From positions 2,666,001 to 2,730,000 of the forward strand of contig NC_134029.1 of the NCBI RefSeq assembly GCF_964204645.1: a stretch of 64,000 nucleotides of DNA, given 5' to 3'. This DNA is from Tubulanus polymorphus (taxonomy: Eukaryota > Animalia > Nemertea). The translations under genes and the position numbers were made by a program. Within the stretch, counting starts at the first letter, position 1. Each line of letters starts with the position of its first letter. Below are positions 24,101-54,566 of this stretch, piece by piece. A model generated the notes under the pieces. The model was not told where the DNA came from. It ran no database searches and saw only the letters and a program-made list of their open reading frames with translations.

Positions 24101-27100
24101 TTATTTGGCAGTAAAAGAACACGCGGATACGAACTGACTGGTTCTCGGTAGAAAAATAGTTATAACTATACATGATTATCCCTGATTAGAGACGATATAA
24201 TGATTTTTATAATTACGGTGAATACTTATATGCATATCAATCAATCGTAAGTCGTAATTTCGACGTGTGATTTTTTCTTGTATTCTGATCGTTTGATACA
24301 AATATCTAGTGAACTTGCTTCACTGTAAACTACTTTTACTACGATGTACTTAAGAGTTCAATAATTGGAGACCCTGAAAAACGAAACAAGCCCGTGTATC
24401 GAAGTGGCCAAAAGGTCAGATGTAATCGTGAATATCGTTGGTCAAATTCATATCGAAGTTATACTCAACGAGCCCAATTTCTCATAGTACATAACTATAT
24501 TATGATACTTGCTTCAGTCAACGATATAATGATTACAATGGAATCTGGCAATATGAGATAAGCCGTCCTTTTGACCACCTCATTGCTTGCCTCGTCGCGG
24601 ATTTGTTTCAAATGTGGCTTCTTTTTCTATTTAGAAAATAGGTTGCGACGGAGTGTTGGGTTCGAGCCTGACGTATGATAAGTGCGGTGTTTGCGGCGGT
24701 GATAGTAGCACGTGTAAAGTAGTATCTGGTATATTCATCCGCACACCTTTACCTTACGGTTACAACGAGATCGCTACTATACCGGCCGGCGCTTGTAAAC
24801 TCGTCATCAAAGAGACCAAAAACAGTCGTAACTATCTGGGTGAGTAATTAAAAACAAACACTCCAAGTTCGAGATTTGAAACTTTCGGGTAACTGTCCTG
24901 GCTAAGAGTGGACAGTTCCAACGACGACTATGAAGGATAAGAAAAACGTAGCTCGTATTGTAAGCAGGAATAAACGTGAAATCCGGTGTATATATATTTT
25001 TTTTGGTGGGGTTATGACGTCACACAATGATAGTGGATTTCAATATATACAAACGAACCACCGCGACAGGAACTGAGTGAATATTACAAACTGCCTCAGG
25101 TTATTTCCTCTGGTCTTTCGTATCATTTTTCCCTGTTTTTATTTTCCATGGTTTATTTCATTGCGCTTCACCTGTTCTCACCAGGAGATATCGCTGACAA
25201 GACGAAGAATGCGATTGTTGAAAATCCAAACTCTACCGGGGGTGGCATTCTTTCCGACCGAGTTATTTCATAAATAATGCATATATAATACGGATTGCGG
25301 AGAGCTTCGTGGGGGTTCATTTCAACCAATTATGTAACTATTAAAGCGACACTTAGTTGACAAAAATGTCTCAATGGAACGTGTAATTACATTACAAAGC
25401 CATATGCAAGTTTTTGCGAGTGATTTTAAAAAGAACTATTCCGATTGAAAATGCACATCACTCTGAATACAGTTGTAAGTGAGCATTTGGCTATCGAGTT
25501 AAATCATTAGGAATTGACTTATTCTAACTCAACTCTTTCTCACAACGGCGAAATCATGTCCAGGATAGAGTTAACCAGAGTTAAAATCCGTTCTTTTTCA
25601 ATGAGTTTACTCCGAGTCAAATCCTAACTCAGAACTCTCTTTGTAATTGGGTCCTGATGTCAACATCGATGTCGTTATTTCAGTACTGAAAAAGAAGAAT
25701 TCCGGACACTACATTCTGAATGGTAATTACGGTATTGATTGGAGTGGTGATTATAAGGCTGCCGGTACCGTGTTTAAATACGTCAGACCGGTCACGAAAA
25801 ACTCGGATAAAAATGAACACATAACAGCAAACGGTCCACTCACTGAACCCATCGTATTAGAGGTGTGTATACAACACATTACATCTTCAATACCTCGATA
25901 TAAAATCCAAATGGTAAATTAGTTAACAGATGCATTACCATTAGGAGCGTCACAAAGATATTCCACGGTTAATGAACAATGCCTCATCTTATCTGGTAAC
26001 ATCCTACGTAATGTGTATGAAAATACATTCATTACGGTTTCTCTGAAATGGAATAGATAATTCTCGAAACTATAAACCTTAGATATCATCAGTAATTGTG
26101 GGATTATACATTATTTTCTACACCTAGAATATGTCAATCCAACCACATATGTCAATTGTTCAACGCAGGTTCTTTATCAAGAGAAGAATTCTGGAATTGA
26201 GTATCAATATTCGATACCGGTTGTAGGAGCGGGTCGAGGACGTGTCAGTAGTTCTCAGCACAGGTATCGTTTCTCATATCTCGGCATCTCAATTTCTTAC
26301 ATATTTGACGTGTTTCTAATGTGCTCTGTGTATTGTTGTTAGGGTAGCGCCTGCAAATAATAATTATCTATCGACTGACACGGTGGAAAGACCAACACAT
26401 GGAAATCGAGATAGGAATCAAAATCGTGTCCCTGCACGAGGGACTGGACAGGGGATCGGACATGGGACTGGACGCGGGACTGGGCGAGGTACCGGACGCG
26501 GTACAGCACGAGGTATCGGACGCGGGACTGCACGAGGAACCGGACGCGGGAACAGGCGCAGACCTGGCAACTCTTCGCCACAGCGGCCGCAAGTCACCGG
26601 AGAGCTACCACCCGATCAACCGGTCGATTTGAGTAAGGTGTTCCAATGGAAGGTCCACGGATTTACAAAATGTTCAGCATCTTGTGGAGGAGGTTCGTAT
26701 GTATTCTTTTTGATAGGAAATTGTTAAACGAAAACAAAAATATTACGAATAATTTCCCACTTTGTTTGTGATAAAGGATACCAAAGATCTAATGTTTTGT
26801 GCGTTGATATAACTTCAATGGCCGTCGTAACGAATGTGAATTGTGATAGACACAAGAAACCGACGAGTCAAACAGTACCGTGTGCGAATGAACATTGTCC
26901 ACCAGAGTAAGTAAAGCCTAGGGATACCATCATAAAGATACCACCGTAAAGATCGTTTCAAAATATATAAAACTTGAAAAGGTCTTATCGTTGTATCTAG
27001 TAACAATCCACAATTTCGGCTGAACAGTGTGATGTGGTCAACTGCTAGTGGGTTTATTTTATACTGCGATGTTTTCTTTCTGAACACGTCAATGTGTATA

Positions 27101-30100
27101 TATATATATATGTTTATGTTTACTATTTGAAAGCTGGACGACTGGTAACTGGTCTCCGTGTAGTGTATCCTGTGGTAAAGGTCAGAAAAAACGACTGGTC
27201 GAATGTAAACAGAGGGTTTCACCGAAAATTACTTTCATGGTATCGGCGAATCAATGTCTCCACAAACAACGACCGTCGTCCACTGAATATTGTACACTAA
27301 CCGCGTGTTTCAAATGGAGAGCCGGACAATGGGGGAAGGTAAGTGGACACTGGATTAACAAATACAGGAATACAGCATGCATTTACAAAACAGCAGAATC
27401 TGTATTCGTTTATTTACGCTACACCTGAATTAGTTTCCCGATTGGAAAAACATTTACATTTACAACGAAACCCAGTCCTAATCATTCAATCTATTCAATT
27501 TCTGCCAGTGGAAAATAATAGTCTTACGTTATTTCTTCAATTAACTTCTTTCACATCACCGAATGCGATAATCATTTTACTACCGATGTTTTCTTTCACC
27601 TGCGTTTCTGCCAACTCAAAATTAATCTCGATTTCATTCTGAGAAAACTTTAACAAATACGAAAAGTTTGAATATTTGTTTTGAAGGCCAGGAATTTCAG
27701 TCGGTTGTTTTAGGTGCTAACAGTCGGCAGGAAGCGAATTGAAACAAATAGAGCCCCCGCTATTGAGAGAGAAATGTTCCCCATAATGGAAAACTAACGC
27801 GCGTTCAAACGTGAACGAATATAGATTTTTTACGTAATCGAACTATAATTTCTTCCAGATGTTCCGTTCGTTTCTTTTTCTCATCAATCACTTAAATCAA
27901 ATGTGAATAATTGAGTGCAACAACTAGATCCGAAATAAAAAGTTTGTCTTGTGCTCGATTGAGTCCCGAAATATTTCACCAACACTTCCAATTTTCGCAC
28001 CAAAAATGTACAAAATAAGGAGACCTTTTATATCGACGAATATTTCTTTTTTTGTATCGAGAAAAACTATACATAGACTGAGATATGTGTAAAAAAGAAT
28101 GCTATGAGAAATTTTGCCAACAAAAAACGAACGAACGTTTTTGGCACAGCTGCCAGAGATCAGTTGCACCTGTATCGTTTTAGTATATAATCCATCATTA
28201 CAGTAACTAGAGTTTACCTAACAACTGACAACAGCCGCAAATATAGAGAAACTACAAAACTCAGGGAGCAAAGAGTACTGTTTTTTACAGCATATTTCTC
28301 TTAGTTCCTCGATGTCATTGGTCTTTCTACAGCAAGGTGCAAATTTGAAATGATATTTATAGGAAAATCGGTATCAGTCATTCGGTCGAATTTTATTTCA
28401 GTCATTTTCAAATATTAAACAATTTGATGACATTACTGCGATCCGCGCTCGTTGCAAAAAGCTGGTTTTCCCGGTTAACAGCGACACCTTTCGGTCGGGA
28501 TAATTCTCGTACTACGACACTCGTCATTCTGAGATCGGGCGAGAATTTCACGATTCGATCGTTCAGTTCGTCGGCGACGCAAACGAATCCTCGACGATCG
28601 ATGCAGATTCCTTTCGGTCGGTTTAGATGACACGGTCCACCGTCGAGACGACCGATCTGAACTCCGCTACGATCAAACACCTTCACGCATGCGTCACCCG
28701 TCTCCGTGACGAACATCCGGCCTTTATCGTCCATCGCGATTCCCATTGGTTGGTTTAAATATTGAAATGGAGTCACGCGTTCACCGATCATAAACACGGC
28801 ATTGTTGCTGGTATCTGTGACGTATATGTGCCCTGTGAGATGGTCGATCAATGTGTCTGTTGGCTCTCTCAGATGATCGCCTTTAAATTCGCAATCAATT
28901 TGCGCTGATTCGGCCTCACTCGGACGAGATAGTATCAACACTCGTCTGTTTCCAGTATCAGCCACAATCAGAAATCCCAGACCGGCGGTTCGCGTGAATT
29001 TAGCGCTTCTCGGCCTATGAAACCCTCCTTCGATAGAGCACGTAGCTTCGTAAGCTGTTGTATTGATAATCTGGACTCTGTGATTGTACGTGTCCGCAAC
29101 GGATAAATCACCACAGTCATCCACATCGATGAACCAGGGATCGTTTAGTTGACAGGGTCCACTTCCAAATTCCAGAACCTGTGCCGACAATCCTGGGTAT
29201 TTGTGACACAAATCAGCCGTAGATTCAGTCATATTTCCACGAGACAGTTACAGTTCCTCCGTATGAAAAGAATGATTGTGCATACGTTGTATTTTATCGA
29301 TATTGCTGTGCTCGTAAATGTTTATGTCGCCAGGGTAGCAACCACTAGTCAAGAGACCATTCGACGCTATTCACTTTTAGTTTCATACAATTCAGTTCGC
29401 ATATAAAACGATTCATTAATCACGAACCTATCGTTCAATGACGTACGCCATATCGTTATATCTAAAGAACTGGGTAAAACAAGATCAAAGACATTATTTT
29501 GATGACGAAAAGATAACGGGTTTAAAAAATGTTATTCAACGTCTTAATACCGGATGCCGGGGCCAAGTTGCATAATCGAAACTTTAGTCGTAACCCTAAT
29601 GACCGAAGGTGTTAGATTGGATATAGAACTTAATTGATCTTATAGACTGGTCTTAAATCTAAGCATTTCCTGCGCAACTGGTATCCCACATAGTGTAAAC
29701 GTACTGTGAATTGAATATCCCAAATCAAAAATCAGAAATAGAAAATCAAAGAACTTATTGGGTTGTTTTTTTAAATCTTTAGTGTTCAGTATCGTGTGGC
29801 CGAGGTAAACAGAGGCGTGATATCGCCTGTGTGGATTCATACGGTAAACAAGTTCAAGATAATTACTGCGAAGGTGACAAACCGCACAACGAACAGAGAT
29901 GTCACAAGGGTTCCTGCGATAGAGACTGGATTCATACTGAATGGTCGAAAAAGGTAGGAATACCGAATCGAAACATTTGAAACATTGACAGAAATTATGG
30001 AATTCATTGTGAACAATTTTGTTATGTATTTTGTGTAGTGTTCGTCTGACTGTGGAGAAGGTGTTTACACTCGAAAAGTCATCTGTAGCGCTATTTCCAA

Positions 30101-33186: not shown

Positions 33187-36116
33187 TTATGATTTATCTT
33201 TCTTTTCTTTTTTCTCAGCATCCGACTTGGCCTCGGCTGCTTCGTGCTTCTTCAATAACTCATCAACTTCGCTCGTTGGTAAAACCTTCAATAACAATTT
33301 AGGTATCAGTGGAAAACCGGTTCTAACAAAATCAAAAATTTTTGATCGAATATCATTTTTTTGCCCCGGGAACCACTCGAATTCTATTAGCGGTCTAGTC
33401 ATTCAAAATAAATGATTGGCTGTGATGTTTAGATTGGCCGCTTCTTCTATTTGTATAAGGCTTAGAATCGTGCACATAGGACGGGTGGAGTGGGGATGGT
33501 GGTGCAGGAAGAGGGGACTGGAAATACAATTACCTTTATAACAGTTTTCCCATTTTCTCTTGTCAATGTCGCTAATTCCATTTTCTCTGATGATAATTTA
33601 TTGATATCTAGAGTTTTATTGAGAACTTTCAAACTCAACAACAAAGCATCTTTCAATTCTATTGTCTCTTTATAGTCCTGTTTCAACATCGAAATAGCAG
33701 CCTATACAAATAGAAATAAATAAACACACTCAATCGCAACGACAAAGCACAAGTTTTCTCAGACCTGTAGCCAGGGCAGATAGTGGCTAGGTGGAGTTCT
33801 TTGGTACTCAAATGAGCACAATTCAGGGAATTTTTAGCAGGTTGGAAGTTTCTTTTCCCCTTAACCTAATCAGTGCCATTCAGGACATTACTAGCAAGTC
33901 AAAGGTGTCTTTTTTCCCAATTGATGGAAAACAGAGAATACCTTGCCGCTGCCACAATTTGAACCCCCGAGTTTGACGGCCTTCTCACAGATCTGAGGAA
34001 TTAGGTAATAGTGGTAGAGATGTACACTTACTGCACTATTGTTACCGATACAAGTAGCTTTCCATCCTCCGTAGTTTCCACTAGGATCACTCTGATACAA
34101 CTGATATCCGTGGTGTTTATCCCAACCCATATATAACAATGAAACACCGAACGGTCGTTTACCTGATACAAAAACAAACATAAATCAATTAACAATGAGC
34201 CAATCGAATAACTTCTGTCAGTTAGGACCTAGCAATATTACCTCCGATTTGTGTATATAACTGTTTATAATCACAGATAGAACTGACTAACTGTTCACAG
34301 GGTTGAGGTTCACCATAATAGAATAAATACCTACAAAACAATCATCGCATAAATATCAGATCAGATCAAGCAAAAATTGTAGAGCTGTGTTCATTGTGGC
34401 AAAATATCCGATGAGGGCGGTTTCTTTTCAAGAGGAGCCTTGTGCCAATGAGATATAAACAAATTTGAATTCTCCGACTTATCCGTGATTTTCAAGAGGA
34501 GTCAGAATTCTCTAATTTTCCCCACAGGGAAAAATGAATCTGATATTCCTTGATGATTTTTTCTGACCTGTAAAAGGGAGACCCAAAACCGGACGCAAAG
34601 TTCATACCTCTGAGCAGAATAACGCAATTCATTAATCAAGAAATTTGCGTCGGAGGTGATTCCTGCAACGCTACAAGCCATATCCCTAGAAATAAATCGA
34701 AACTTGCAGTTCATTATTTTCATTCGAAATTCATAAATCGCAGGAAATTGCGAATGATTGTTAAACTTACTCGTGAAGTTTGTAGATTTTTTCTGAGTAG
34801 GAAACCTCGTCGAGGAGTTTATTCGTGTTACGTCTTTCCGCAGCTAAAACGACGCCATCTTTAGCTAGAATACCGAGACACGTACCAGCGTGGCCGATAG
34901 CTTCCATCGCATATTCAACCTGGTACAATCGACCTAAAAACAAAACAAAATGAGGACTATTCACTGACCGATCTATTCAATTAAAATCAATCAATAATTC
35001 GTCAAATTCTACAGATGACAAATAAATATTGTATGAACCCTCAAGAATTAAAATCTGAGATGCATGCCAACACAGACCCTGGCCGCAGATCCTACATTGA
35101 AATTGGTCTAGTTAGTTACCTAATTGTTGGTGGTAAGCTTTTTATAATCGAATGGGCTTATACCAACGGATCAATGTGGTTTGTGAAAATATCCGATCGT
35201 GAAACTAAATCAGACAGGTTACTGACTAGTGATCACTAGGCGGCCACAAGTATCTAGCCCACAGGGACTTGGCACAAAAAGTTTTTGACCCCAGTATCCT
35301 AGGTACTACATATGAGAAGACTTTTTATATATAGTACCTAGGATACTGGGGTCAAAAACTTTGTGTGTCAAGTCCCTGTGATCTAGCCAATTAGATGCGT
35401 TGCATTGATAAAGCGAATCTGCCAGTGAAAAACAACGCATCTGATTGTCGGTGAAAGTTAATTGAAATGAAGTGGCTATTCGCACGGACACGTACGAATA
35501 ATTCCGGAGGTTATTCGTAAAGGAAGGGATAGGGTTAGGGTAAGGTGAGGCTATATCTAGTTAAAACATTCGGCCGACTGTCAGCGAGCTTGGTGGTCTA
35601 GTGGTACGATGCTGTGCTAGTAATTTACTGGTTTACTGGCCCGGCATCGAGTCTCATTCTATTTTTCTCTTACTCTCTTCTCTACACTTTCCTTGAATTT
35701 TCTAGGTCCCGCACCTTTTTGTACGATGTGTGGCGAATATACATTCTACCCAGAACAAAATGCAAGGCTTTAATCTCTACTTTAGATTCTGACTATCTAA
35801 AATAATTTTGATTTCGATGGCTTACCTTCAGGAGAGAAGATAGTCGTACGCGAGTCATATCTGCGAGACTGGAAAAAAATTCATCACAATAAAATAAGTT
35901 TGATTGATTTTTTTTGTGATTCAGCATTTTTAATGTTTGATTTCGGATTCAGACCGCGAATCAGGAAATTAATTCATCAATTCTAATTATTTATAAATAA
36001 ACAATACATCACAGATTCAAGCTAGAATAATCGATTACAACCGGGAAAACGATTAACTGTGTGATAAGATTTGTATAAAATTTTGCTGCCGGCAAATTTC
36101 AATCTAAACCCACCAT
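33187..36116 (-). CDS. PSMA4: proteasome 20S subunit alpha type-4 (alpha3)
   Basis: Exons (minus) 36116-36114 (ATG only), 35868-35826, 34933-34771, 34685-34608, 34330-34242, 34161-34032, 33701-33534, 33285-33187. They give [57 protein letters not shown]...[54 protein letters not shown]...EKKEKKDKS. Confidence 0.98.
35260..35380. mobile_element. 121-bp hairpin MITE with 8-bp TSD (hAT-like)
   Basis: Arms of ~53 bp (cacagggacttggcacaaaaagtttttgaccccagtatcctaggtacta... and its near-perfect reverse complement), flanked on both sides by ATCTAGCC (35252-35259, 35381-35388). Confidence 0.88.
35587..35655 (+). pseudogene. tRNA-derived relic (SINE head or tRNA pseudogene)
   Basis: A-box-like TGGTCTAGTGG, loop-like CTAGTAA and degenerate B-box (atcgagtc); no intact cloverleaf. 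Confidence 0.35.
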
Positions 36117-36866: not shown

Positions 36867-37129
36867 CGACATCACTAGCTACTAACAAACTTCGTCTTTC
36901 CAATCTAAAATTAAAACTTCTATTTTATATGATGCTTACTTGTGATATTAGATTAAAGTTATATATCCTTTTATTCCGTGAGACACTATCGATTTGTGAA
37001 ACGTCTTTCATATTGCATAACGTGTACATATTGCACCGTGAAACTTACCCTAATTTCTTTGATTTCTCCACTAAATATTACTGCAATGAAATGTGACTAT
37101 TTCAGAGGCAGTTGATGTAATAATCGAAG

Positions 37130-40100
37130 ATGCCTAAGTTTGGTAATTCGCTATTCGGGGTGTCTACGTTCTACGCGGCTAGTTTACCTAATGATAAATG
37201 TGGAGCAAATGGTTTACCTCTGACTCCTAATTCCATCAAAATACTCGGTAGATTTCAATACTTAAAAACATTCGAACATCCGAACTGCTGCGTTTATCTG
37301 GATCTGATTCGCTCTAAACACGGTGAGTGTGATTGTGATTATCCTCCAACTCTGCCACCATCCTCGACAGGGATACGAACCATGGCAGATTCTGACCATT
37401 GCCATGGTGTGAAACCTAGTCTAGTACCTAGCCGTCGTTCCTCAAACAACCGTAGGGAACTGGTAACAACGACTGGTATTCAGACTATGTGAAACCCTAC
37501 CTAATGAGCCCCAGTGCACAGATACAGTTGCAGGTTGCGGCACCAATCTGATGACCTGTTGTATAATCTAATTTCACAGATAACTATAAATGAAATAACC
37601 CAGGCTAAAATATGATTTCTTATTGGCTACTAATGACATCATCCAAGCTGCACTGAAAACCTGCACATTTGGGCTTATGAAGCAGGTTTTTTGCCATTGC
37701 CTAATGTCGATGCCATCAGGTTCTAATCTCTGCTGAGGGAGGATGTACGTACTTTAGTACAAATGATGGATATGTTTATGTTTAATTGTTGTATGTACGA
37801 TTATATTGCAGAGAGAATCAGTATCGTCTCCGAATATTATGATAATAATCTGGCAATTGAAATGAAATCTGGTTTATACAGCAAGTAAGTTATACTGGAT
37901 TCTACTTCACTAATACTTGATCAACCATCTCCTTGATCACTGTACGATTGCGGTCTAAACCCTCGTAAAATTCTACGCACCAATACTGAGTAAGACTATG
38001 TGAAATACAGTACATTCTTGTATCTTACTGTGGTCAAGTTGAAACTACGTGTAGTTTTTACCCTGAGTTGGGATCATATACTAAGAAAGAGTTTGAAAAA
38101 GACATTAGACTCTGTCTCAAAGTATTTATTCTTAAAGCGTAAATGTTTACTGAATGTGGTTTTTTTAAAATTATTTCAGTGAATCAATGTTGACTGGTCT
38201 TGCGTTTAATGTTCTACAAGCTCTAAGTTATATTCATCAAAAAGGACTGACACATTGTAATCTATCACCTGAAAATATTCTATTAGATCCAACGGGTCGT
38301 GTGAAATTATCGAATTATGGATTATATCATATGACAGGACATGGGACTGATGTAGCGTTTCCTATCGGGTAGGTTTGAATACTACATCATGAAGTTTTTG
38401 GGACGTGTTAGGAATGTTGATCAAGGGACAGTTGCTCAAAAGTTTGTTGAAGTTGCCCTTCAGATAGATACCGTAGTAACAATGTCAACAAGTCAGTTAT
38501 CCATCTGCCCATTCTACGTTCCTACAACTCATGAATTTGGAGCAACTAGCCCTTGAATATCAACGGTGATATCGTTATTTTGTCCTGACATTTTAGTGAA
38601 TGTGAATATATGTCGCCTGAAACAATAGCTATGGGTCGACCTACGGCTCACGATACAGAGGAACCAATACCTCGTATCGGTCCTAAATCAGATGTCTGGT
38701 CTCTCGGTATGGTGCTTTTGGAGACATATTTGGTAAGTAGATGGCTAAAGAATTTTTGAAGAGTCTGATAACTGTCGCGCACTGATGTCTCAATTTTTTC
38801 ATGTCTCATAGGGAATAAAACTTTATTCAAGTTTAACGGTCAAACAGAAATTAAGAAAGGTGCTTTCATTCCTTACATCGAGTAAGTATGGATACTATTT
38901 CTCATCTATTTGATTCTTTAAATTAGTCGTCATTTTTTACAAATTTTAACTCGTAGATTCAGAGCCATTGGAACAAGTGCTTCATGACAATGGTTTAACA
39001 TTGAAATTGAAGGTATGATCAGTGTTTAGTTTCCTGATGAAATCTCAATGGTTTGTAAGATTTCATGTGCTATTTTGACTGATATTTTCAGGATATGCCA
39101 AAGAATCTCAGAGAATTTTTCACACTTTGTCTGACAACATCAACTTCTACGAGGTAAGACGTAGCCGAAATGCTAAAACTTCATTAGCATTCTTATATTC
39201 TGACTGAAATTCATATATTTCAGACCTACAGTTCAGACTTTGATTTGTTCAAAAATATTCAATGAAAATCGCAAAACATATGTAAGTAAAGATTACAATT
39301 TGGAAGAAACTACGCTTTGAAGATGTTTGAAATTTGATGTTTTTATCGGTTTTATTTTCGTAGGTTCCACATAAGAATGGTTATTTACCGTTAAGCGCAC
39401 AAGCTCGCAGTTTGGACCTAGAAATGCCTGTATTGGATGAGGAAAGCCTTGGGAAAGGTATAAACATTCTAGCAAACCTGTGATGTTCCATATCAAAATG
39501 CACAAGTTACTGTACAGTAAAACCTCTATAATGAACACCTTTGGGTCTGGGCAAAACGTTCGCTGTGGAAAGGTGTTAGCTATGGAGAAGTTTGAATTTT
39601 GACATCACACAATCTTGTGGTCACTCATTGCGAAGATCAATAGAAATCGTATCCTACACAGATGCACGATTCACGTATCATTTGGCTATCTAATTTTTAA
39701 CAATTTAAATCTCCACACATAATCAACACAGCAACACAACCTTACAGGTTGAAATCCATATGGCAAGTGACCAAAAATAAAAAAGATATCAATACAATAT
39801 GCAGAATACAATACGTAGAATGTCAGGAATTAATCCTTACACTCGTCAATTGACCCCCAGACATACTGGTACATGGACACTGTATGCTCTTGAGAGGTGT
39901 TCATTGTAGAGAGCTTCTCTTACTTGAAAATGAAATTTTCGTTGCGAGGAATAGTGTTCATTAGTACATAGTGGGTGTATTTGCAGAAACAGATGTGGAT
40001 CATTTAGCTGAGAGAAGTATGAGCGAGGTTTATTACCTATGGACGTTATCCGGTGGATACATAAACTCAGTGTTGAAGAAAGCCGGTTTAACTAAAACGA

Positions 40101-43100
40101 ATCCGCCGGTTACGATGATGCCTCAGTTTGTCGTTGAACAAGGAGAAATGTTCGGACAAGTGAAAGATCAGTCATCGTTGTATAATAAAACAGTGGTGGT
40201 TTTATCATTCGAACAGCTCCGACAGGTAACGCACATTTTACTTCTGAATCTAAACACCTGAGATATCCTAAAAACAGTTACATTATATATTCGTACCGAT
40301 ACATTTTATCTGACTGTACATCATCATTTATGTATATAGTGTTATTGTAGTGAAAAATTCAATAACTTTGATTAGAACTTAATGCCTTTTTCTGTAGAGA
40401 TTGGAAAATCTGGATGAAACGGCGTATTACCCACTGTTAGAGGGAGAAGAGTAAGTACAGATTCAAACGCCCTGTTGAATTATTATGTTATTTAGGAATT
40501 TTACCCACTTTATTGTTTTTCAGTTCATTTTTACCTCACAATAATGGTAATCACAGCGCAGGAGGACTGCCCACTTCACCGAGTATAGCTAGTCTTAACG
40601 AGACGGCTTCACTACCGACTAATATCAAAGAAAAAGATATTGAATATCAGGTACTCAATCAGTTAAAACGACACTCATCTAAACACATTGTGTACTTTCA
40701 AACGTTGAAATCTAACTTCATTTTGATACACGGATGAACTTATTTCAATTCAACGATTAAGAGTTGTTTATTTTATTCTGTTGTAGTTTCATCGTATAAT
40801 ATTGTACGATCGTTTGTTAATCGGCTACCCTCATAAACGCCCACAGATCTGGAAGGAAGCTCGAGTTGATGTACCTCCACTCGTCCGTAATCTTGTCTGG
40901 GCTGCTCTTCTTGAAGTTGAGGTATATAGGTTACTAGACAAACTTCTTACGCCTAAGAATTTATCCCTTAGATGTAAGAGTTTTATCTCAGTAATTCTTG
41001 GAGATACTGCGCTCACCACTGCTGATTGCCTCTAATTATCATGTGCCCCGGACTTTGATTGCCTCTGATTATTGTGCTCCCAGGACAAAATATTTGAAAT
41101 TGACCTCCAATTTACTTGAGGATGACCCATCACTAACCCTTGAGTTTTATGAATGTGGTATATCGCTGTTTTTTCACACAGGGCGACTACCAAGAAAAAT
41201 ACGACGCAATTGATAAAGAAACACCTACAGCAACAGACAGACAGATAGAGGTTGATATTCCGCGTTGTCATCAGTACGACGAAATGTTATCTTCACCGGT
41301 CGCTCACGCAAAATTCAAACGTATTCTAAAAGCGTGGGTCGTCAGTCATCCGCAATACGTTTACTGGCAAGGATTAGATTCTCTTTGCGCGCCATTCCTT
41401 TACCTTAACTTCAACAACGAAGGTAAAAAACCAGTCGATTCATTACAGTAGTACCTCTTATACTCGGACATGTGCTGCTAAAACTAAGACTTCTGACTAA
41501 TTCAAAAAATGAAATAATCTTCTCAGATCAATTTTGCCATTGGTTCCAGTTTGTCTGAGTTAGGTGAGATTATTGTGTAAAGAAGTGGATGTCTTTGTCT
41601 TATTGAAGTGTAAATGGGTGCCTCGGGCTTTATATTTCAGCACTCGCCTATACCAGTCTGACGAAGTTCATTCCAAAATACCTGAATAAATTCTTCTTGA
41701 AGGATAATTCACTGGTTATAAAAGGTGCGACAAAAACTCCGTAGTTTTTCGTATACAACAAGGTGAAATATTAAATGTAATCTATATTTTGTTCTATTTG
41801 TAGAGTATTTAACGGTATTTAGTCATTTGATTGCATTCCATGATCCTGAGTTGAGTACACATCTTGATGGTATTGGATTCATTCCTGATGTAAGTCAGAC
41901 TCTAGATTTTTCATGAAATGAACTGAAATTCATTCAGTTTCTGTTAAATACGGCAATATTGTTGTAATGTTTTACAGCTGTATGCTATACCGTGGTTTCT
42001 GACGATGTATGCTCGTAAGTATCCTCTCTCCGCTTTCAACTCAGCTGAAAACTAGTCAACCCCAAATTAGTGATTGATGATTTTGGCTGTAAATAGAGTA
42101 ATAAATATCTTCTAAACAAAAACCTGGCTTTAGACGAGTGTAGTGGGGTTATCAGGCGGGCTCTGTATTGGGAGTTGATTGTTATGTATTTTCCCTAGTG
42201 AATCAACTGTTTTGATATTTGATTTCAGACGTTTTTCCTCTACACAAGATATTTCACCTGTGGGACACGTTATTACTGGGTAATTCATCGTTCCCGTTGT
42301 GTATCGGAGTAGCGATATTAGAACAGTTGAAACTGCAGCACAACCTCCTGTCTCACGGGTTTAACGAATGTATTTTACTATTCTCTGATATGCCTCGTAA
42401 GTCAATGCCGTTTATTCGTTCAGTTTCGTTATTAGTCAGTGATTAATGCCAGGAGTCTCGTGTTCTATCAGCATTTCTCATTCTTACAGAAATCGTAATC
42501 GAGAGATGCGTTCAGGATTCTATTAAGATATTTTGTAACACGCCGAAAAGTTCAACGTATCGACAGTACGCGCGTCCCGCTAAACGATCACCAGGGGGAG
42601 CTACAGATCGTCATTCTTACTATTCACAGGACTATCACGATTTGCCGGTTAATGAATTGGTGAGTACCACGAGTTAATGCGAATACATCAAGGCTTAACT
42701 CATCTAGAAATTCTCACTCTTTTCTGAATTTATTTTCGCAGTCGATGGAACCGGTTCCTCTAGAGGAACTACGCGAAGAGAAATGTCCTCGAATATCGGC
42801 TGAAGATCTGGTCGAGTTGGGTGAACTGATCGGACCAGTCGCGTCGAAGAGTCCCACAAAAAAATCCAAATCTAGTCGTCCGAAAATATTAATGATCGAT
42901 GTTCGAAGTCACGATGAGTAAGTAAAAAGTTTTATTGAGTAGTTACTAAACTCTGAGTAATGTAGAGTCTACAGTCTACTAAACTCTGAGTAATGTAGAG
43001 TCTACAGTCTACTAAACTCTGAGTAATGTAGAGTCTACAGTCTACTAAACTCTGAGTAATGTAGAGTCTACAGTCTACTAAACTCTGAGCAATGTCGAGT

Positions 43101-43962
43101 CTACAGTCTACTAAACTCTGAGTAATGTAGAGTCTACAGTTTACTAAACTCATGTACTAGACTAATGTAGGGTCTTTAAGGACTGATAATATCTGGATTA
43201 AACATATTTTACGATCAAACCCATTAAAAAGGTTGTCACCGTAAAAGTCACCTCATCATTTATCACTATTTGAGTCCCAATTTGTATTTCCGATTAAATT
43301 AACAAATCGTAAGTCGTCATAAGTATTCGACATAATGATCTTCCCAAATGTAATAAAAAATGCTAGTTTTACTGGGCATCTATGTATAGGTGGACCATTT
43401 AATGATATCCCATTTAGATCAAAATCCAGATAAAACTGATCTGAATTAAGATCATGGCCTGTAGCTCAGCAAGGGAGGGTAGATACTTTTTCCCCCCCTT
43501 AAAAGTGGAGTGAACCCATCTTTTTTATCAGTGGATTTGAAAGTAGTGCAAATTGTCATTTTCTTTGTTATTCACCTGATGTGAATGAGTTGTTTTATAT
43601 TTCAGTTATCAGCGAGGTTGTATACCTAACAGTATAAACCTACCGTATTCAACGGCATTTAATTCCGATAAAGATTTGAACCCGTGCGCCGCCGTACATT
43701 TGCTCAACTCGATGAAAGCACAGGTTAAAGTGATCATCGGAAACCGAGGAAAGAATGCCGTCTTCGTAAGTTTGAAAATGAATGAAATCTCTTCGAATTT
43801 CAAGTATTGATAGATTATTGTTAATTCATGAGGTTGTTTTTCGATTTTCAGTTTGCGAATGAATTAGTTCGACTCGGTTATAGTAAAGTGTGTATTCTGC
43901 ATAAAGGAATCGATGTTTTCACTTATACAAACGTTTTAATAGTTCCTTCACACGATTTATAA
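37130..43962 (+). CDS. TBCK: TBC domain-containing protein kinase-like protein (pseudokinase + TBC/RabGAP + rhodanese-like), many small exons
   Basis: [24 protein letters not shown] (exon 37130-37322); [36 protein letters not shown]; [15 protein letters not shown]; [21 protein letters not shown]; [22 protein letters not shown]; [24 protein letters not shown]; rhodanese-like IDVRS...[10 protein letters not shown]; last exon [21 protein letters not shown]...HDL* ending at 43962. Confidence 0.97.
37417..37487. mobile_element. 71-bp mini-MITE of the same family with 9-bp TSD
   Basis: Flanked by TGTGAAACC at 37408-37416 and 37488-37496; shares gtaacaacgactggtattcagacta with the 36809 copy. Confidence 0.82.
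38424..38553. mobile_element. short TIR MITE, representative of a family with GGGCCCAGTT(G/T)C-like ends
   Basis: agggacagttgctcaaaa / tttggagcaactagccct inverted ends; similar-ended ~100-150 bp elements at ~20581-20730, ~29558-29690, ~31187-31285 and ~44041-44175. Confidence 0.55.
39515..39920. mobile_element. Tc1/mariner-pogo (Tigger-like) non-autonomous element
   Basis: TA|CAGTAAAACCTCTATAATGAACACCT left TIR; degenerate right TIR AGGTGTTCATTGTAGAGAGCTTCTCT|TA; located in a TBCK intron. Confidence 0.6.
42944..43151. repeat. 33-bp minisatellite, ~6 copies, in a TBCK intron
   Basis: Unit tactaaactctgagtaatgtagagtctacagtc, near-identical copies, no spacers. Confidence 0.95.
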
Positions 43963-46163: not shown

Positions 46164-48082
46164 TTGCGGATAAGATGATTCGGAAAAACATTAGTTTTAG
46201 AAAAATCGCAGTATCTATTGAAGAAAATGCAGGAATTTCGCAGGAGTCGGTGATTAGATTTTAATTCTAATTCTGGAAATTTCCAAGAAACGATTATAAA
46301 TCTTTATTCTGTTATGAATAATCCAGTTATACTATCAATCTTTTTGATCTCGGGGGTTGTTTTTGCTGTCGTCGCAGTGTATTAAATCAAGCGGCGTTAA
46401 GTTAAATCTATTTTCAAGTCAAACACTTTGTTGTGGCGGTAAAATGCGATTAGCACAACTGAGAAAATCGACGAATTTGCAAATTTGACAACTGCGGCTT
46501 GGGGGATAGGAGAGAAATGTGAAAATTACCGATTGATTTAATCCTAACTTCGTTTTGATGACGGTTCAATGAAACACTTCAGTCATTACGCGCATTCATA
46601 ATGTGGTGGTACATGTGACATTTATACTCGCATATATCGGTATATAAGTCGTTCTGCATAAAAGTTACACTTTCCATTGATTTATTAATATCAAATAAAC
46701 TTGACTTACATAACTTAACAGCAATCCTTTTAAAACTATTTCAGATTGAATGAAGACTATAAAAGCACAGCAAGACATTAACACGAACATGAAACGCGCT
46801 CCAATCTAGGCCTATTATAACCATTGATGAAACACTGTCTCTATTGCTGAACGATGACATAAATGTATATTACTGGGATATAAGTCGAATGATTTTAGAC
46901 TTTTTAATGCGGATTTTCATCTTAAGCTTCGCCGTTTTTGTAATCTCTTATAAACACGGCTGCGCCCCTATAGTTTTAATTAACTAGACGGCGAGATCTG
47001 TTTTCTTTTTATTAATTCAGGGTTTATGGATTTCGAGACAATTCAAACAACACGAGTAAATACAAGCATCTGGAAGTCGATTTAAGTGAAAGAAAGCTAA
47101 ATGAAAAGTGGCAAACATTGCGTAGCCAACTCGTTAATATTCATAGTGTGAATTTAAGATTGATGTCGCTGGTTTTTCGCTGGTGACGACAGAGATATTT
47201 TTGTCCTACGCGGTGGCCCGATGGTTGCTCTGACGCTCTACGCGAACAGTGATGAATAATTCCGCGAACGACGTAGTTTTAATTATGTATTTAGCGGCAC
47301 AGACAAGCCGATTAACGTGGATTAATCCGGGGATTTACTCGCCTTCCAATAGTTAAACCTTCAGTACAAGACATGCCTGGAATATTCAGGCTTAAAAGCA
47401 TAAATACCTTCCTTGACTTGGATGAACGAAGATCGATTTCATATTGTTCTTATTTTGAAGGGATTGCTGCAACAGTTAAATCATTTTCTTTTTAAGTAGA
47501 GAAATTTTAAGGCAAATCTGTCTTTTACTTATTTTGATTAACAAATACGTTTCTTAGTAATTTAAGGTACGTAGACTCAACATAGCATTGTATGAAAGGA
47601 CCCTTTAACTCACTTCTACATATTAGTGCACTTGTTCCATTCCCCAGTTCTTTGACTCTATTGAGTAAAAACATCGAAAATGAACTTACTTTAACTCCTA
47701 GATAACTTTAACTCACGGAACCGGGCCCTAAATGCTCTGTTAGCCAACAGACAACCAAGAACGACTTTACATACCCTCGCGTGGGTCTATTTTGCCATAA
47801 GGTGACTTAATATGGTGTTGCACCAATCCCTTCAATCTAACATGTTCATTGTTTTATTTACATTTCGTAATTTCGAAACATCATACGCATATCCCTGGTT
47901 TTACGAGGATAATGACACGGTATAAGAAGTTTTACTTGTTTTACAACCAGGACCCTGGGAGAGTTTTATACGGCATACTGAAGGACACCTGTATCGGTTG
48001 GTTTTAAACTGCGCATCGTTCCCAAAGCGATATGAAGAGTATAATGCAATAACTATCAATAATGTAGCAAATAGATTGCAAT

Positions 48083-48412
<330 letters not shown>

Positions 48413-51118
48413 TCGTTTCTATTCAATTCCCTTTCCATTATTGATAGAAGGTTTATGGCTTGAAAAAAACATACGCACGAAATTGACCCGTAAAATGATG
48501 GAAGGGTACTCGAGTACGATGGCAGATTTATAGAAAATATGGAAAACCTTTTGTCGAAAAAATGAACCAAAATCTGGGAATCCTGACGACGCTATATTCT
48601 ACACTCAGCCTTTGAGATTGCTGTAAATAAACAGAGATTCTATGATTGCGATGCAAGTAATTTTTGATCGTTAGAATCTAATCTTATTTCGATCTCATTT
48701 GACAAAGAAATCTAAACAAAATGCTTTCAACTGTGTTATAGGTATTTGTACGGAGACGCGAGTGCCCGGTATTGAGAGTGTGATTACACGGGTGAGTGCA
48801 TGTTCAGCGAATAAACATAGAAAACAACAAACAATTTGTTTGATGAACAGGAAATTACTGTGACAGTTTAAGACAGGATCCACACCTCTTCAGTCTGATA
48901 ACCTTTCAGTTTCTTACTGCACAGTAGAGAACAACATCTTCACTTACTGTGTCGTGAGATTCTGTTGGCTTTCTCGTGGGTTGGTTGGGCAGAAAGGGGT
49001 CAACGGAGTTATCGATAAATCATTCTGTATTCAAAAGTTGTGAAATGTTTTTTTTATAAATTCTAATTATTTCACTATTATGCAACGCTTCATTAGTGAG
49101 ACTCTGTACGACCCTTTGCAGGAACACGTTTAACATATCGTTATTACTGCAACATGTCTTTGAAGTGTACTAGTGGCCGGGTATAATAGCCGGAGGATGG
49201 AGGAGAGATGACGACATGTTGTTTCAGTGATCGCGGAGGCTATCATACACGGGTTTGTGTAAAATACACGCTGTCTCTAACACGTACTGACGACATATTC
49301 GCTAATTAGACGGACAACAACGTGAGTAAGGTACTGTATCGTATCGAACGAGTGAGGGGACATCTTGTCAAGTCGTTATTTGGAAAATAAGAAATCCGAG
49401 CGCAAATGAGTAGCTGGTGAAGCGTCGTAGCATTGGCTATGATTAATATATAAAAAATTGGAAGCACGGCGAGTTTAAGTATAAAGAGATGACAGAGGGA
49501 GGATATGGGGGGGGATAGATAGGACGAGAAGACGGACGGAGAAGGAAGGGGGTCAACAAGAGGAGGAGAGACCGGGGGCTGAGTTGAGGGAATGGATATC
49601 TCGCTGAATAATGATATATAAGTCAATGTGGTTTTAGCTAATGATAGAACTGGTCAATATCACCGTTCGGTCAGAGTCAGAGATTCTCAGATAAATCTGT
49701 GACAAATTAGATGCACATTCACCTGTCTATCAGTTAATAGTTCTCACAGTTCTTACCACGGGTTAGTTCTCATATTCCTGCGGTGATCTGTTATTTTTTT
49801 ATGAATTAAATCGATGTGCTGCGCTGGAAATTGGTACGTATCCTATACCAAAGCTATCGCGAAGGCGTCTGCTGAGACATATTTCAGTTTTTATTGAAGA
49901 ATTACTCGTTTGGCTTGATACGCGTATTGTTATGATGACTTAAAGGTCATAAGTCAGAGCTGTTATCAGTATCAACGAAAAAACCCAGCGTACGACCGGC
50001 CGCCGATCCCCCGCCATTACAACTACAAAAGACGGGAAATATATATTGGAAAAAAGCAATTTCTGGTGGATAGTGGTCGGATAGAATGCGCGTACGGGAG
50101 GCTTAATGAAGCGAGAGGATGGGCTGATTGAACATAATAGAACCACTGCAGTGGTCTCTGATACAGACTGAGGTCTTGAGGTCTTTGGGACTTCTTTTAA
50201 TTAGTCAAAGCATACATTCTTTCTTTTCCGGTTGGTCTGATTAGACAGAGCAGTTTTTGTGCCGTATAGATTATATCTAGGTGGTGAGGTTGGTTGGATT
50301 GAATAAAAATAAAAGTCAATTAACCGTCGAGTTCATTTAGACGTGAAATTTGCCGGTCATTATGATCATATTACACGCGGTCAGAGTAATAAATATCGTC
50401 GGTGAGTGAAGGGAGAATGGCGCCGAGGAACCATCGGGGGAAAGAGAGAAACAAAACGGGAAGAAAAGAACACTCAACCAAAAACCTTTCCAGACGTAAC
50501 AAGATCTATTTTACGGTGGCCGGCCTCCTATTATGTTTTGGCTACTGCCATATCAACTTCAACAGTAATCTGAATACTAATCCTGCGGGAGTCTCCGAGC
50601 GCACGGGTTTCAGATGATCCGGGATGGACTCGGATTATTGTTACTCGTGTTATTAGATCCATTAACTCGGCGACAAGATCATTTGTAAAGATTAGTAAAT
50701 CTTACACCATTGACCAAAAATAAAGCACACTTCTGCTGCCACTGGAAGTGTTTATGACTGAGGCTGATGATTCCACCCCCTCATTCTGTCGAGGAATCCC
50801 GTAATCAGATTATCAATCAGTTGTCCATGAAGTTCTTTCTAAACTCTTGAATACTTTAACAGGGTGATGGAAGTTACAGGACTCAGCAACTCAAGTGGAA
50901 TTTATTAGATATATATGACATGTCCCTTATCGTTATTGTTCGCATTACTTTCATGATTTAAACTAAAAAGCGGAATTCTATAAGTAAATGTTGCTACTGA
51001 TTCGACTTGTTCGACTCCACAAAATGTAATAATACAAAGCTTCTGGAAATATGCCATGTTGTGTGGTGGCAGTACACTCGCTGCGACTCAGTGAAACAGT
51101 AACGTTTACAACACGAAC

Positions 51119-53723
51119 ATGTATTCTCGTAATCTTATCCTTCTCAGCTTCGTCGTTTATTTCCATTCGACTTCAGCTTGTAAATGTGTACCACCAGCTA
51201 TAGAACAGGCTTGCACTTCGAATTTCAGTAAGTATCTAATTAGAATAGAAAGAGTACCAGATAGATTTAGTGTGAAAATGTTGATCGAGTAGAATTGTAT
51301 CGTGGTTGTTACAAAAACGTCCCTTTTTTCACAGGTTTTCTGTTAATATATCTATAAGTTTACTTTTCACTGTAATACCAACTACTTTTAAAAGCTGGTT
51401 CTGCTAAACAAATTCGTTCTAAAACTAGTTTTCGAAACACTCCTGAAATATTGAATTGAATTGTATATTGTATACTATCAATAAATTAACCTTACACTCT
51501 CTTACACTCTGTCAATACGTATGACAGGTTTTATACGTATATATATATATATACCTGAACTCGTACTTGGAATACAGTGTTATATACGTTACGCTTTTAA
51601 TAAGTGCGGCCAAAGTCGGATATAGCATAGTATAGTGCCTTGGCGTAGAGTTAATAAGTTGTGCGGTTAACGTATCAGCGCATTAATACATTGGCGCATG
51701 AATACATTGATAATTGGGTATTAACCGCGGCAAAGGAACAGTTCATTTACACGTTGACCGACGACTAGTGACAGTTGACTACTGTTGGTTGTTTGTTGGT
51801 TGGCCCAGTGGAGAGGTGATAGAGTGCATATTTCACCCGCTGGTTGACGGCCGACGGATGACACGATGCAATGTTGTCGCCAATGTATGTACAAGGATCG
51901 TGGCGACAGAGACGATAGAGTGTATAGACCTATATCATCCGCTGGTTGACGGTCGACGGATGACACGTCGCAATGTTGTCGCCAATGTATGTACAAGGAT
52001 CGTGGGTTGACTGGTTGACGGGTGACCACACAACACAAACAAACAAGAGAAGTAAATCTAAACCGAAACAGTAAACTATAAGAATCAGCTACGAAAGTTT
52101 CATTTTTGATTTTGAAAAAAGAGCCGTCACGTATCGACGTCGTTCTGTAGCAATGTGAACAATGCCATATTTCACCGTCCCCACAGTTGGTTTTTTGGAG
52201 GCGCATCTCACGTTGACAGTGCTGAAAATAAATAATGAATCTCCTGTGATTTTGAAGGCTCGACCGTGTTGAAACTAATATCAGAGAACTGGAATTGACT
52301 AAAGAAAAATAGAAATGCAATTTCTATTTTAAGTATGGGGTTTATCATGTGTTTGGTCACGTGGTGTGTTTGGTGTTTAAGGTTAATAGATCGTTAATAG
52401 TTAATTTGTTGGTTGGTAGATACGTCGACACGTTGGCACATGGAATGTTAATGACTGGCGATTTGAATGTGTCGACATGACAACTTTCTTTGGGATACAC
52501 ATAAACCGAAGAACTCAGTAAGCATACGCGAAGGAACTATACTATGCAATACCCTACTTGAGCCATAAGTGCTTTGTGTTCCAAACTGAAACGATGATGT
52601 CTACAAAATCCTTAGCGATCGTGGTCGTTATTTTGGCAATGACGATGGTTAAATCTATCGATAGTTGTTCGTCGTTGAGTGATATGTGTACTGCGAATTT
52701 CAGTAAGTAAATATCTGTTGTTATCGTATGATAACGGATAACTCTAGGGTATAAGATTGTGTGTGTTTTTTTGCCATTTACTATTGAGTTTATAGAAAAA
52801 GATTTGAATTTCTAAATCATAATCTAATATATCTCTCCCTGTATATTCACATTAATACCATTATCTTTGCAGCGATTCGAGTGAAAATTATATCCTCAAA
52901 TGGAACGGTCGATTCGAACCCACCATCAAGTGGTAATATCGTATATAATGTCAACCTTATTAGTGTATATAGGGTATGTAAAAGTTCACCTTTAATGTAT
53001 TCTTCAGACGCATTTGATAAAATATGCAAACGGTATATATCTAAACACTGAGTTGGACCCTGGATTCTAAAACGTTTTAGAATCCATGGTTAGACATTCC
53101 GAAAACAGTTTTTGAATCAAGGTCTCCAAAGCCAATTTTGATTAAACAACAACCATTCTAAGACCATTTCCAGACTAAAAAGAAAAAAACATTTAGTGCT
53201 CTTCTGGGGCTGGTTTTATCGATTGCTACGTATTATCTTGAATCCGGAATTAACTGAAAATGCATTGAGTTAATCCTCGGAGCAAAGTTAAACAGTCCCT
53301 GTTGATTTGACCTACAGTGCCCGATATTCATACCCGATTATAACTTTTTTCAGTGGCACAGCGACCACCCAAGAACGGTTAACACCATTTCAACACCCAG
53401 TTCAAGTGCCGCATGTGGAGTAAGATTGCCATTGGGTTCCGGCAAAATATTAATGGGTAAACATCTTATGTTCTTAACATAAAGTCGTATCTATACTAAT
53501 AAAATCGAGCCCGATAATTCGTTTTCTTTCCGTTTCAGGAGGTTTTTACAAGTCCCAAGCCCAGGTTCACTCGTGCTCCTACAAGGCTGATTGGTCAACA
53601 GAAGAGGAAACTGAAATCTATAAGACTCTTCAGAAATGTGGAGCCGACCTGAACAGATCAAAACTGACTTGGACCGTTTTTATCGCTCTCTTCGTTTGGA
53701 TAACGTTTTTGAACCAGAAATAG
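51119..53723 (+). CDS. single-domain TIMP (N-TIMP/NTR) protein with C-terminal GPI-signal-like tail, isoform a (165 aa)
   Basis: Exons 51119-51227, 52873-52973, 53354-53456, 53539-53723 give MYSRNLILLSFVVYFHSTSA/CKCVPPAIEQACTSNFTIRVKIISSNGTVDSNPPSSGNIVYNVNLISVYRWHSDHPRTVNTISTPSSSAACGVRLPLGSGKILMGGFYKSQAQVHSCSYKADWSTEEETEIYKTLQKCGADLNRSKLTWTVFIALFVWITFLNQK*. Mature Cys at 1, 3, 12, 71, 97 and 118 match the N-TIMP pattern; TPSSSAACGV motif present. Confidence 0.88.
51608..52564 (-). mobile_element. internally deleted Merlin (IS1595/ISXO2-like) DNA transposon
   Basis: Imperfect ~39-bp TIRs starting GGC (ggccaaagtcggatatagcatagtatagtgccttggcgta versus reverse complement ggctcaagtagggtattgcatagtatagttccttcgcgta). 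Perfect 8-bp TSD ATAAGTGC (51600-51607, 52565-52572). Minus-strand zinc-ribbon fragment QHCQREMRLQKTNCGDGEIWHCSHCYRTTSIRDGSFFK. Internal ~96-bp direct repeat at 51818-52005. Confidence 0.88.
52594..52702 (+). CDS. alternative first coding exon (1b) of the TIMP gene
   Basis: MMSTKSLAIVVVILAMTMVKSIDS/CSSLSDMCTANF; 109 nt, ends CGAATTTCA|GTAAGTA exactly as exon 1a does; phase 1 into exon 52873. Confidence 0.8.
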
Positions 53724-54179
53724 AGATATTCACTATAGAATTTCACTCTATGGATTAAGTACAATACATGCACTATTTATATATGTTAAGACTGTGATAA
53801 AAAAAATTTTGAGAGGTTGCCAATATTCCGCCCAACGTTACGGAGAATTGTCCTGCTCTTATTTGATATATGTACATGTTATAAATGGCTTTTCATAGAT
53901 TCGGTTTATTACAAAAGTTTTTACAAAAGAATCTTTTCCACAACAAATTTTTTCTAAAGAAATACGCATATGTATATACATCAAAGATGAAAAGATATTT
54001 TTTGAATAAACTTTGAATTGAATGAGAAAAAAATTGAGAGTTGAATTGATAACTGATCCACTGGAAAATATATGACTGATAAACGATCTCACTAGCTTTT
54101 GACATTTCTATTGATGGCATAAACATGATAGATCAAGGCGAATTAATGATAACCTTTTGTAATTGGTGATAAGGTGATG

Positions 54180-54566
54180 CCTCTCCCTCTCCCTCTCCCT
54201 CTCCCTCTCCCTCTCCCTCTCCCTCTCCCTCTCCCTCTCCCTCTCCCTCTCCCTCTCCCTCTCCCTCTCCCTCTCCCTCTCCCTCTCCCTCTCCCTCTCC
54301 CTCTCCCTCTCCCTCTCCCTCTCCCTCTCCCTCTCCCTCTCCCTCTCCCTCTCCCTCTCCCTCTCCCTCTCCCTCTCCCTCTCCCTCTCCCTCTCCCTCT
54401 CCCTCTCCCTCTCCCTCTCCCTCTCCCTCTCCCTCTCCCTCTCCCTCTCCCTCTCCCTCTCCCTCTCCCTCTCCCTCTCCCTCTCCCTCTCCCTCTCCCT
54501 CTCCCTCTCCCTCTCCCTCTCCCTCTCCCTAACCCTCTCCCTCTCCCTCTCCCTCTCCCTCTCCCT
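54180..54566. repeat. (CCCTCT)n / (AGAGGG)n hexamer microsatellite, ~64 units
   Basis: Read directly; one CCCTAA variant near 54527; explains the ER/RG/PL repeat ORFs. Confidence 0.97.

Follow-up and report, generated by a model that had tools for sequence, protein, structure and literature searches.

LOC141905910 of Tubulanus polymorphus, which lies in the 64-kb stretch of DNA analyzed here (the window), is a spliced gene for a single-domain TIMP, and its structure, family, and fold are established. The gene is already annotated in RefSeq, but as "uncharacterized." The TIMP family and the single-domain form are known; what is new is a native GPI-like tail and a second first exon, both of which are predictions at the level of function. 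We give about an even chance to the protein being GPI anchored at or near Cys138 and inhibiting surface metalloproteinases, with two first exons supplying two inhibitory N termini. The fuller reading is more tentative, a possibility that we hold at less than even: a natural GPI-TIMP in which the anchor replaces the C-domain and two first exons, one of them behind a transposon, switch the tip between Lys2 and Ser2 and with it the targets.

The four exons given in the preliminary description (51119-51227, 52873-52973, 53354-53456, and 53539-53723) were borne out, with GT donors and AG acceptors throughout. Their 165-aa translation was also reproduced, with Cys at 21, 23, 32, 91, 117, and 138 (mature 1, 3, 12, 71, 97, and 118) and with the TPSSSAACGV motif and hydrophobic tail reported earlier. 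It is identical, letter for letter, to RefSeq XP_074651111.1 (LOC141905910 isoform X1, T. polymorphus), and the RefSeq cluster of the gene has two members, isoform X1 (165 aa) and isoform X2 (135 aa). The exons, splice sites, and protein of the earlier model therefore stand, but the model was incomplete, as a second first exon at 52594-52702 had been overlooked. Likewise, the mature N terminus C-K-C is present in exon 1a but is one of two, the spliced contig using exon 1b. The features of the locus are as follows.

51119 to 51227, plus strand: exon 1a, the first exon; signal peptide ending T-S-A, mature start C-K-C, and Cys12; donor GTAAGT (plus strand), phase 1
51608 to 52564, no strand assigned: high-copy repeat between exons 1a and 1b; terminal inverted arms and 8-bp target-site duplication
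52594 to 52702, plus strand: exon 1b, the alternative first exon; own signal peptide ending I-D-S, in register with exon 1a
52873 to 52973, plus strand: exon 2; strands A and B of the NTR barrel
53354 to 53456, plus strand: exon 3; TPSSSAACGV, with Cys71 and the second half of the predicted reactive ridge
53539 to 53723, plus strand: coding part of exon 4; Cys97, the last helix, Cys118 (residue 138, codon 53637-53639), tail, and stop
53640 to 53720, plus strand: predicted GPI signal; G-A, polar spacer DLNRSK, hydrophobic L147-L162 (53664-53711), and N-Q-K
53724 to 53917, plus strand: 3' untranslated region, covered by run X2 contig 14 (53634-53917)

An AATAAA is found downstream of the covered 3' untranslated region, at 54005. 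When the window was scanned with an HMM built from 25 relatives, which excluded the protein but had been picked by likeness to it, the four exon-bearing frames took the top places among 2898 six-frame pieces (E 1.2e-7 to 1.6e-3; exon 1a, E 4.9e-5), and the next-ranked piece had an E value of 0.91. No second copy of exons 2 to 4 was found in the 64-kb window.

Membership in the TIMP family is firm. The identity proposed from the sequence was confirmed with Pfam TIMP (PF00965), where the protein scored 45.3 bits against a cut-off of 23.1 and matched profile positions 2-115 of 183, covering the N-domain only; single exons gave no TIMP match in Pfam because the pieces are too short. Five of the nine PDB sequence matches were TIMP-2 or TIMP-3 chains (E 4e-6 to 2e-4), with alignments beginning at Cys1, and the other four had E values of 0.15 or worse. 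The N-TIMP fold was likewise recovered: AlphaFold2 on 26 sequences gave a model (pLDDT 86.2, pTM 0.71) whose best Foldseek match was TIMP-2, and the 18 best rows among those listed were all TIMP-1, TIMP-2, or TIMP-3 (best E 9e-9), with chicken NtA at rank 45 (E 1.8e-3). AlphaFold2 on the single sequence gave a pLDDT of 39.8, and a separate Atlas model reached a TM of 0.71 to a mollusc TIMP cluster. C21, C23, C91, G92, and C117 were invariant in all 26 aligned sequences. The six N-domain Cys are in TIMP register, their disulfide pairing being drawn from homology rather than read from the model. A C-X-C directly follows the signal peptide, as C-K-C in exon 1a and as C-S-C in the run allele of exon 1b (cleavage placed by eye); the exon 1b signal could also be cleaved three residues sooner, after V-K-S, which would leave Cys1 blocked.

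The single-domain build was upheld as well, since the stop lies 27 codons after the sixth Cys and the C-domain of two-domain TIMPs, with its three further disulfides, is absent from the protein. A C-domain HMM made from five relatives, a weak profile with no held-out control, found nothing below E 0.06 in the window, its best match (E 0.062) lying upstream in another gene. The agrin NtA domain (PF03146) gave no Pfam row at E values up to 1.

To examine splicing, contigs from five runs (X1 to X5), none of them on record as RNA, were aligned to the window; run X5, presumed to be RNA, yielded no contig there. Run X2 contig 13 skips three GT..AG introns that run X1 contig 8 keeps as DNA, and run X2 was on this ground taken to be spliced RNA. 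The skips comprise the exon 2-3 and exon 3-4 junctions and the junction from exon 1b to exon 2 (52702 to 52873). Contig 13 starts with the segment 52481-52702, not in exon 1a, and reaches approximately 53632 in exon 4; contig 14 continues through the tail and stop (53634-53917) at a depth of 188 versus 203 in contig 13, and the one-base gap between the two would fit an allelic site. No joint out of exon 4 was listed in the run contigs and coverage crosses the tail and stop, in line with the earlier proposal that no C-domain exon follows. This spliced evidence is one contig of one run, from one sample and one study, and contigs drop rare forms. The junction from exon 1a to exon 2 (51227 to 52873) was not among the listed contig joints, and exon 1a had no run X2 contig cover; as these are contig data, this is not evidence of silence. 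Use of exon 1a is predicted from the RefSeq model of isoform X1 and from the intact sequence features of the exon, in which a synonymous T>C at 51178 was seen in runs X3 and X4.

Exon 1b is a 109-nt coding exon that has 21 of 23 nt in common with the end of exon 1a, donor included. All three runs covering the site (X1, X2, and X3, from two samples; X4 and X5 give no cover there) carry 12 extra in-frame bases behind 52669. Read in frame by hand, this run allele gives C-S-C-I-K-P-S-L-S-D-M-C at the mature start and keeps the 1/3/12 Cys spacing of exon 1a, C-K-C-V-P-P-A-I-E-Q-A-C. The window copy is without the 12 nt and hence without Cys3 and the C-X-C; it is likely a damaged allele, the shorter form being either a true allele or an assembly error. 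RefSeq isoform X2 begins MCTANF, at the Met behind the 12-nt gap, and has no signal peptide, presumably because the model starts behind that gap; a 12-nt deletion in a reference assembly can thereby hide a spliced isoform. The two first exons differ at mature residues 2 and 4-11, and the isoforms would therefore differ in their targets. Thus, one gene likely offers two N termini, with Lys2 or Ser2 at the specificity residue, on one tethered body, which would be a natural test of how residues 1-12 set selectivity on a fixed scaffold.

The repeat at 51608-52564 has inverted arms of 66 nt (76%) and an identical 8-mer on either side (51600-51607 and 52565-52572), and its summed contig depth in run X1 was 400-2800 versus 12-29 in the flanks. 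Three run X2 contigs match the element without differences across 51640-52220 of the window, at depths of 88-116. We take it to be a hAT-like nonautonomous element. It ends 29 nt before the exon 1b ATG, and its right arm contains the start of the spliced contig; the start of the exon 1b transcript may lie further inside the element. Within exon 3, run X1 carries two G>A changes at 53436 and 53442, each converting Gly to Asp (residues 98 and 100), and run X2 matches the window at both positions. Together with the damaged window copy of exon 1b, this pair could reflect relaxed selection.

Upstream of the TIMP gene in the window is a kinase-TBC gene (37124-43962, plus strand; domains found by search), which we take to be TBCK-like, and head to head with it lies a proteasome alpha subunit gene (33187-34976, minus strand). 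Nesting of the TIMP gene in an intron of a neighbor was not seen, as the kinase-TBC gene appears to end near 43960; this check covers the window, and a host gene could have its exons outside it. Downstream of the kinase-TBC gene, no other gene was recognized in the window ORF list. An ADAMTS-like gene with TSP1_ADAMTS domains is located at 18786-27428 (plus strand), and its exon at 26320-26727 holds a G-T-G-R-G-T repeat; no HExxHxxGxxH zinc-binding motif was found in the six frames of the window. A single frame at 28408-29247 (minus strand) encodes a 279-aa NHL-repeat protein stretch. Very long pure repeats flank the TIMP locus, at approximately 48070-48420 and 54160-54566, comprising a trinucleotide repeated about 110 times and CTCTCC repeated about 65 times, one of these units reading CTAACC.

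A GPI signal near mature C118-G119-A120 had been proposed for the end of the protein. Published patterns, in the portions of the sources that were available, have a small omega residue (A, C, D, G, N, or S) and a small residue at omega+2, a polar spacer of 8-12 residues, a hydrophobic end of 15-20 residues, and a cut 20-30 residues from the C-terminal end (PMC9098846, PMC2571997, 10.1101/838680). In a scan of 21 positions, C138-G-A and N143-R-S satisfied the small-residue rules, and C138 was the only one to satisfy all scored rules, with a polar spacer (hydropathy -1.23), a tail start at omega+9/10, and a propeptide of 27 residues. N143-R-S was rejected as the omega site, as the hydrophobic stretch would start at omega+4. 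The hydrophobic stretch is 16 residues long, followed by N-Q-K, and has a best 15-mer hydropathy of 2.09 and a 19-mer hydropathy of 1.42. The pattern rules thus fit at Cys138 as proposed, but the flexible linker expected before omega is replaced in the model by one helix (125-164) that runs through the tail, with the lowest pLDDT of the model (67) at residues 141-150. It may be that the transamidase acts ahead of folding. Among verified omega residues, Cys is one of the rarer, according to the accessible part of one source (10.1101/838680). C138 should sit in a disulfide, which was counted against it as omega. Thy-1 has a disulfide-bonded Cys omega site; a literature search for this site found no paper on it. 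On balance, the tail pattern favors a GPI signal with somewhat better than even confidence, and tethering of the protein to the membrane by any means is probable.

Two other accounts of the tail were weighed against a GPI signal. The tail could stay on the protein as a short transmembrane helix, leaving three residues in the cytosol, so that the protein is tethered but not via GPI, as the single modeled helix through the tail would allow; membrane-tailed TIMP-like domains do exist, since P0020 and P0022, two relatives of bacterial type, have a hydrophobic helix and lysines at their end. We consider this unlikely, as a stretch of just 16 residues, with its low 19-mer hydropathy and a single basic residue behind it, is on the short side for a stable transmembrane anchor, and small residues and a polar spacer stand at the distance expected for GPI. 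Slightly less probable still is that the tail is unselected read-through left by the loss of a C-domain exon, with the protein secreted or poorly exported and the gene perhaps decaying. Relatives mostly stop within a few residues of the last Cys, and both the damaged window copy of exon 1b and the two Gly-to-Asp changes in another haplotype would suit such decay. Against this, all six Cys are kept, no base change was listed inside the tail in the contigs of runs X1 and X2 (a very small sample), and random read-through rarely resembles the tail: from 18328 start points in downstream DNA without a recognized gene, 85 gave a hydrophobic end of 18-35 aa and four the full pattern, on criteria set after seeing the tail and with overlapping start points.

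The function of the domain and the use of exon 1a are separate matters. A surface-anchored NTR-domain module that binds matrix or a ligand, rather than a protease inhibitor, has a low probability, comparable to that of the transmembrane helix. It draws on an agrin NtA-like cluster that ranked second by features (score 0.83, a lead only), on the weaker fold matches to noninhibitory NTR proteins, and on the Lys2 of the exon 1a isoform, given what the available text says of this residue in helminth TIMPs (PMC3679795). TIMPs outrank other NTR proteins by both sequence and fold, however, NtA had no Pfam match at E values up to 1, a C-X-C comes straight after the signal peptide in both exons, and the Ser2 of the spliced exon 1b allele is of the vertebrate type (PMC8467561, as available in part); we therefore prefer an inhibitor. 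Independently of the anchor, exon 1b may be the sole first exon in use, with exon 1a a relic of a partial duplication and no specificity switch. The only first-exon joint listed does start from exon 1b, yet exon 1a retains an open frame, a signal peptide, three Cys, and a GTAAGT donor despite its divergence from exon 1b, RefSeq models it as isoform X1, and the sole variant seen in it is silent. Hence, we regard the relic as rather improbable, if less so than the alternatives above.

In vertebrate N-TIMPs, the protease zinc is bound by Cys1 once signal peptidase has freed it. By homology, signal peptidase would expose Cys1 of the Tubulanus protein, which would chelate the zinc of the protease, while residue 2 would enter the S1' pocket and the S-S-A-A-C loop would cover the other side, again as in vertebrate N-TIMPs. 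GPI transamidase would remove the 27-residue tail and add lipid, and the choice of first exon would switch residue 2 between Lys and Ser, changing the target range. In the parts of the papers available, the C-X-C motif is described as engaging the active site (PMC8467561) and residue 2 as sitting in S1' and shifting selectivity (PMC9409782). Ser2 is the vertebrate type (PMC8467561), and Lys at this position, found in 4 of 32 relatives, is called atypical and possibly noninhibitory in helminth TIMPs (PMC3679795); Lys2 may weaken or redirect inhibition. The TIMP C-domain normally aids binding to surfaces and matrix (PMC3679795), and the anchor would take on this localizing job of the lost domain, concentrating the inhibitor where membrane MMPs or ADAMs act. 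That an anchored TIMP can work is indicated by engineered GPI-TIMP-1, which, in the accessible text, reaches the surface of cells, is retained in membrane extracts, and leaves cellular MT1-MMP without gelatinolytic activity (PMC6359047).

To identify relatives, an exhaustive search was performed, which returned 30 matches, 29 besides the gene itself, with a best identity of 39%; an alignment search added three among its six matches, and word-based homologue searches returned only the RefSeq cluster of the gene. Of these 32 relatives, 20 had their names looked up and a further two came named from the alignment search; none of the named ones is nemertean. Three have a hydrophobic C-terminal end: P0022 (a WS6 bacterium), P0020 (of similar build), and P0049 (Owenia). 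P0049 is not a tailed TIMP, as it is a two-domain TIMP that runs on into the beginning of a GPCR and likely a fused gene model; P0027, which has no Cys, is likely a chance match. A tail following the N-domain was found in none of the 12 named animal relatives (six nematode, two annelid, and one each from a sea urchin, a mite, a coral, and a clam). The libraries contain a single representative for each cluster, and most TIMPs fell outside the E cut-off; tailed animal TIMPs may occur beyond the proteins sampled. A cnidarian-rich cluster of 293 aa had a feature score of 0.90-0.91, which reflects features only and no sequence comparison.

The usual account of TIMPs is that they are soluble inhibitors. 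No natural C-terminally anchored TIMP was found in the available portions of five TIMP surveys (PMC4860685, PMC9409782, PMC3679795, PMC10755359, and PMC8467561). In the literature on GPI-anchored TIMPs, as far as its text was accessible, the identifiable ones were engineered and the rest concerned human disease; the literature search found no TIMP paper on duplicated first exons. To block membrane MMPs better, TIMPs have been engineered for display at the surface. If the GPI reading is true, evolution reached this engineered design with a minimal domain of approximately 118 residues, and anchored metalloproteinase inhibitors would include a second class in addition to RECK. The reach of this is so far one gene in one species.

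Among known systems, invertebrate single-domain TIMPs (PF00965) of nematodes, cnidarians, and others share the signal peptide, C-X-C, six Cys, NTR barrel, and missing C-domain, the best matches being Haemonchus and Ancylostoma proteins with 31-37% identity. Unlike the Tubulanus protein, they stop at the last Cys or shortly beyond it and lack a hydrophobic tail, and the available portions of the papers describing them mention no duplicated first exon (PMC4860685, PMC3679795, PMC9409782). The N-domains of human TIMP-1, TIMP-2, and TIMP-3 have the same fold (Foldseek E 9e-9 to 1e-6), Cys register, and S-S-A-x-C loop, whereas identity is approximately 20-24% and the vertebrate proteins are soluble and two-domain. 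P0020 and P0022 resemble the protein in their TIMP-like domain, SSAACG motif, and hydrophobic C terminus, and have a C-S-C start of their own, but differ in having a Pro-rich linker some 60 residues long and an end rich in lysine. GPI anchors are not produced by bacteria, and the membrane tail of these two is likely an independent means of tethering. Engineered GPI-TIMP-1 carries a GPI signal and is displayed at the surface, as predicted here, but, according to the part of the source available, is an artificial two-domain protein with a prion-protein anchor (PMC6359047), whereas the Tubulanus tail is native and follows the last N-domain Cys. RECK, a natural GPI-anchored metalloproteinase inhibitor, is a functional analogue structurally unrelated to TIMPs, according to the accessible part of its source (PMC12842694). 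Finally, insect serpin-1 also varies a specificity-setting segment on a shared body by exon duplication; as described in the text available, it belongs to another fold and protease class and uses many C-terminal exons (PMC10513286), in contrast to the two first exons found here, each with its own signal peptide.
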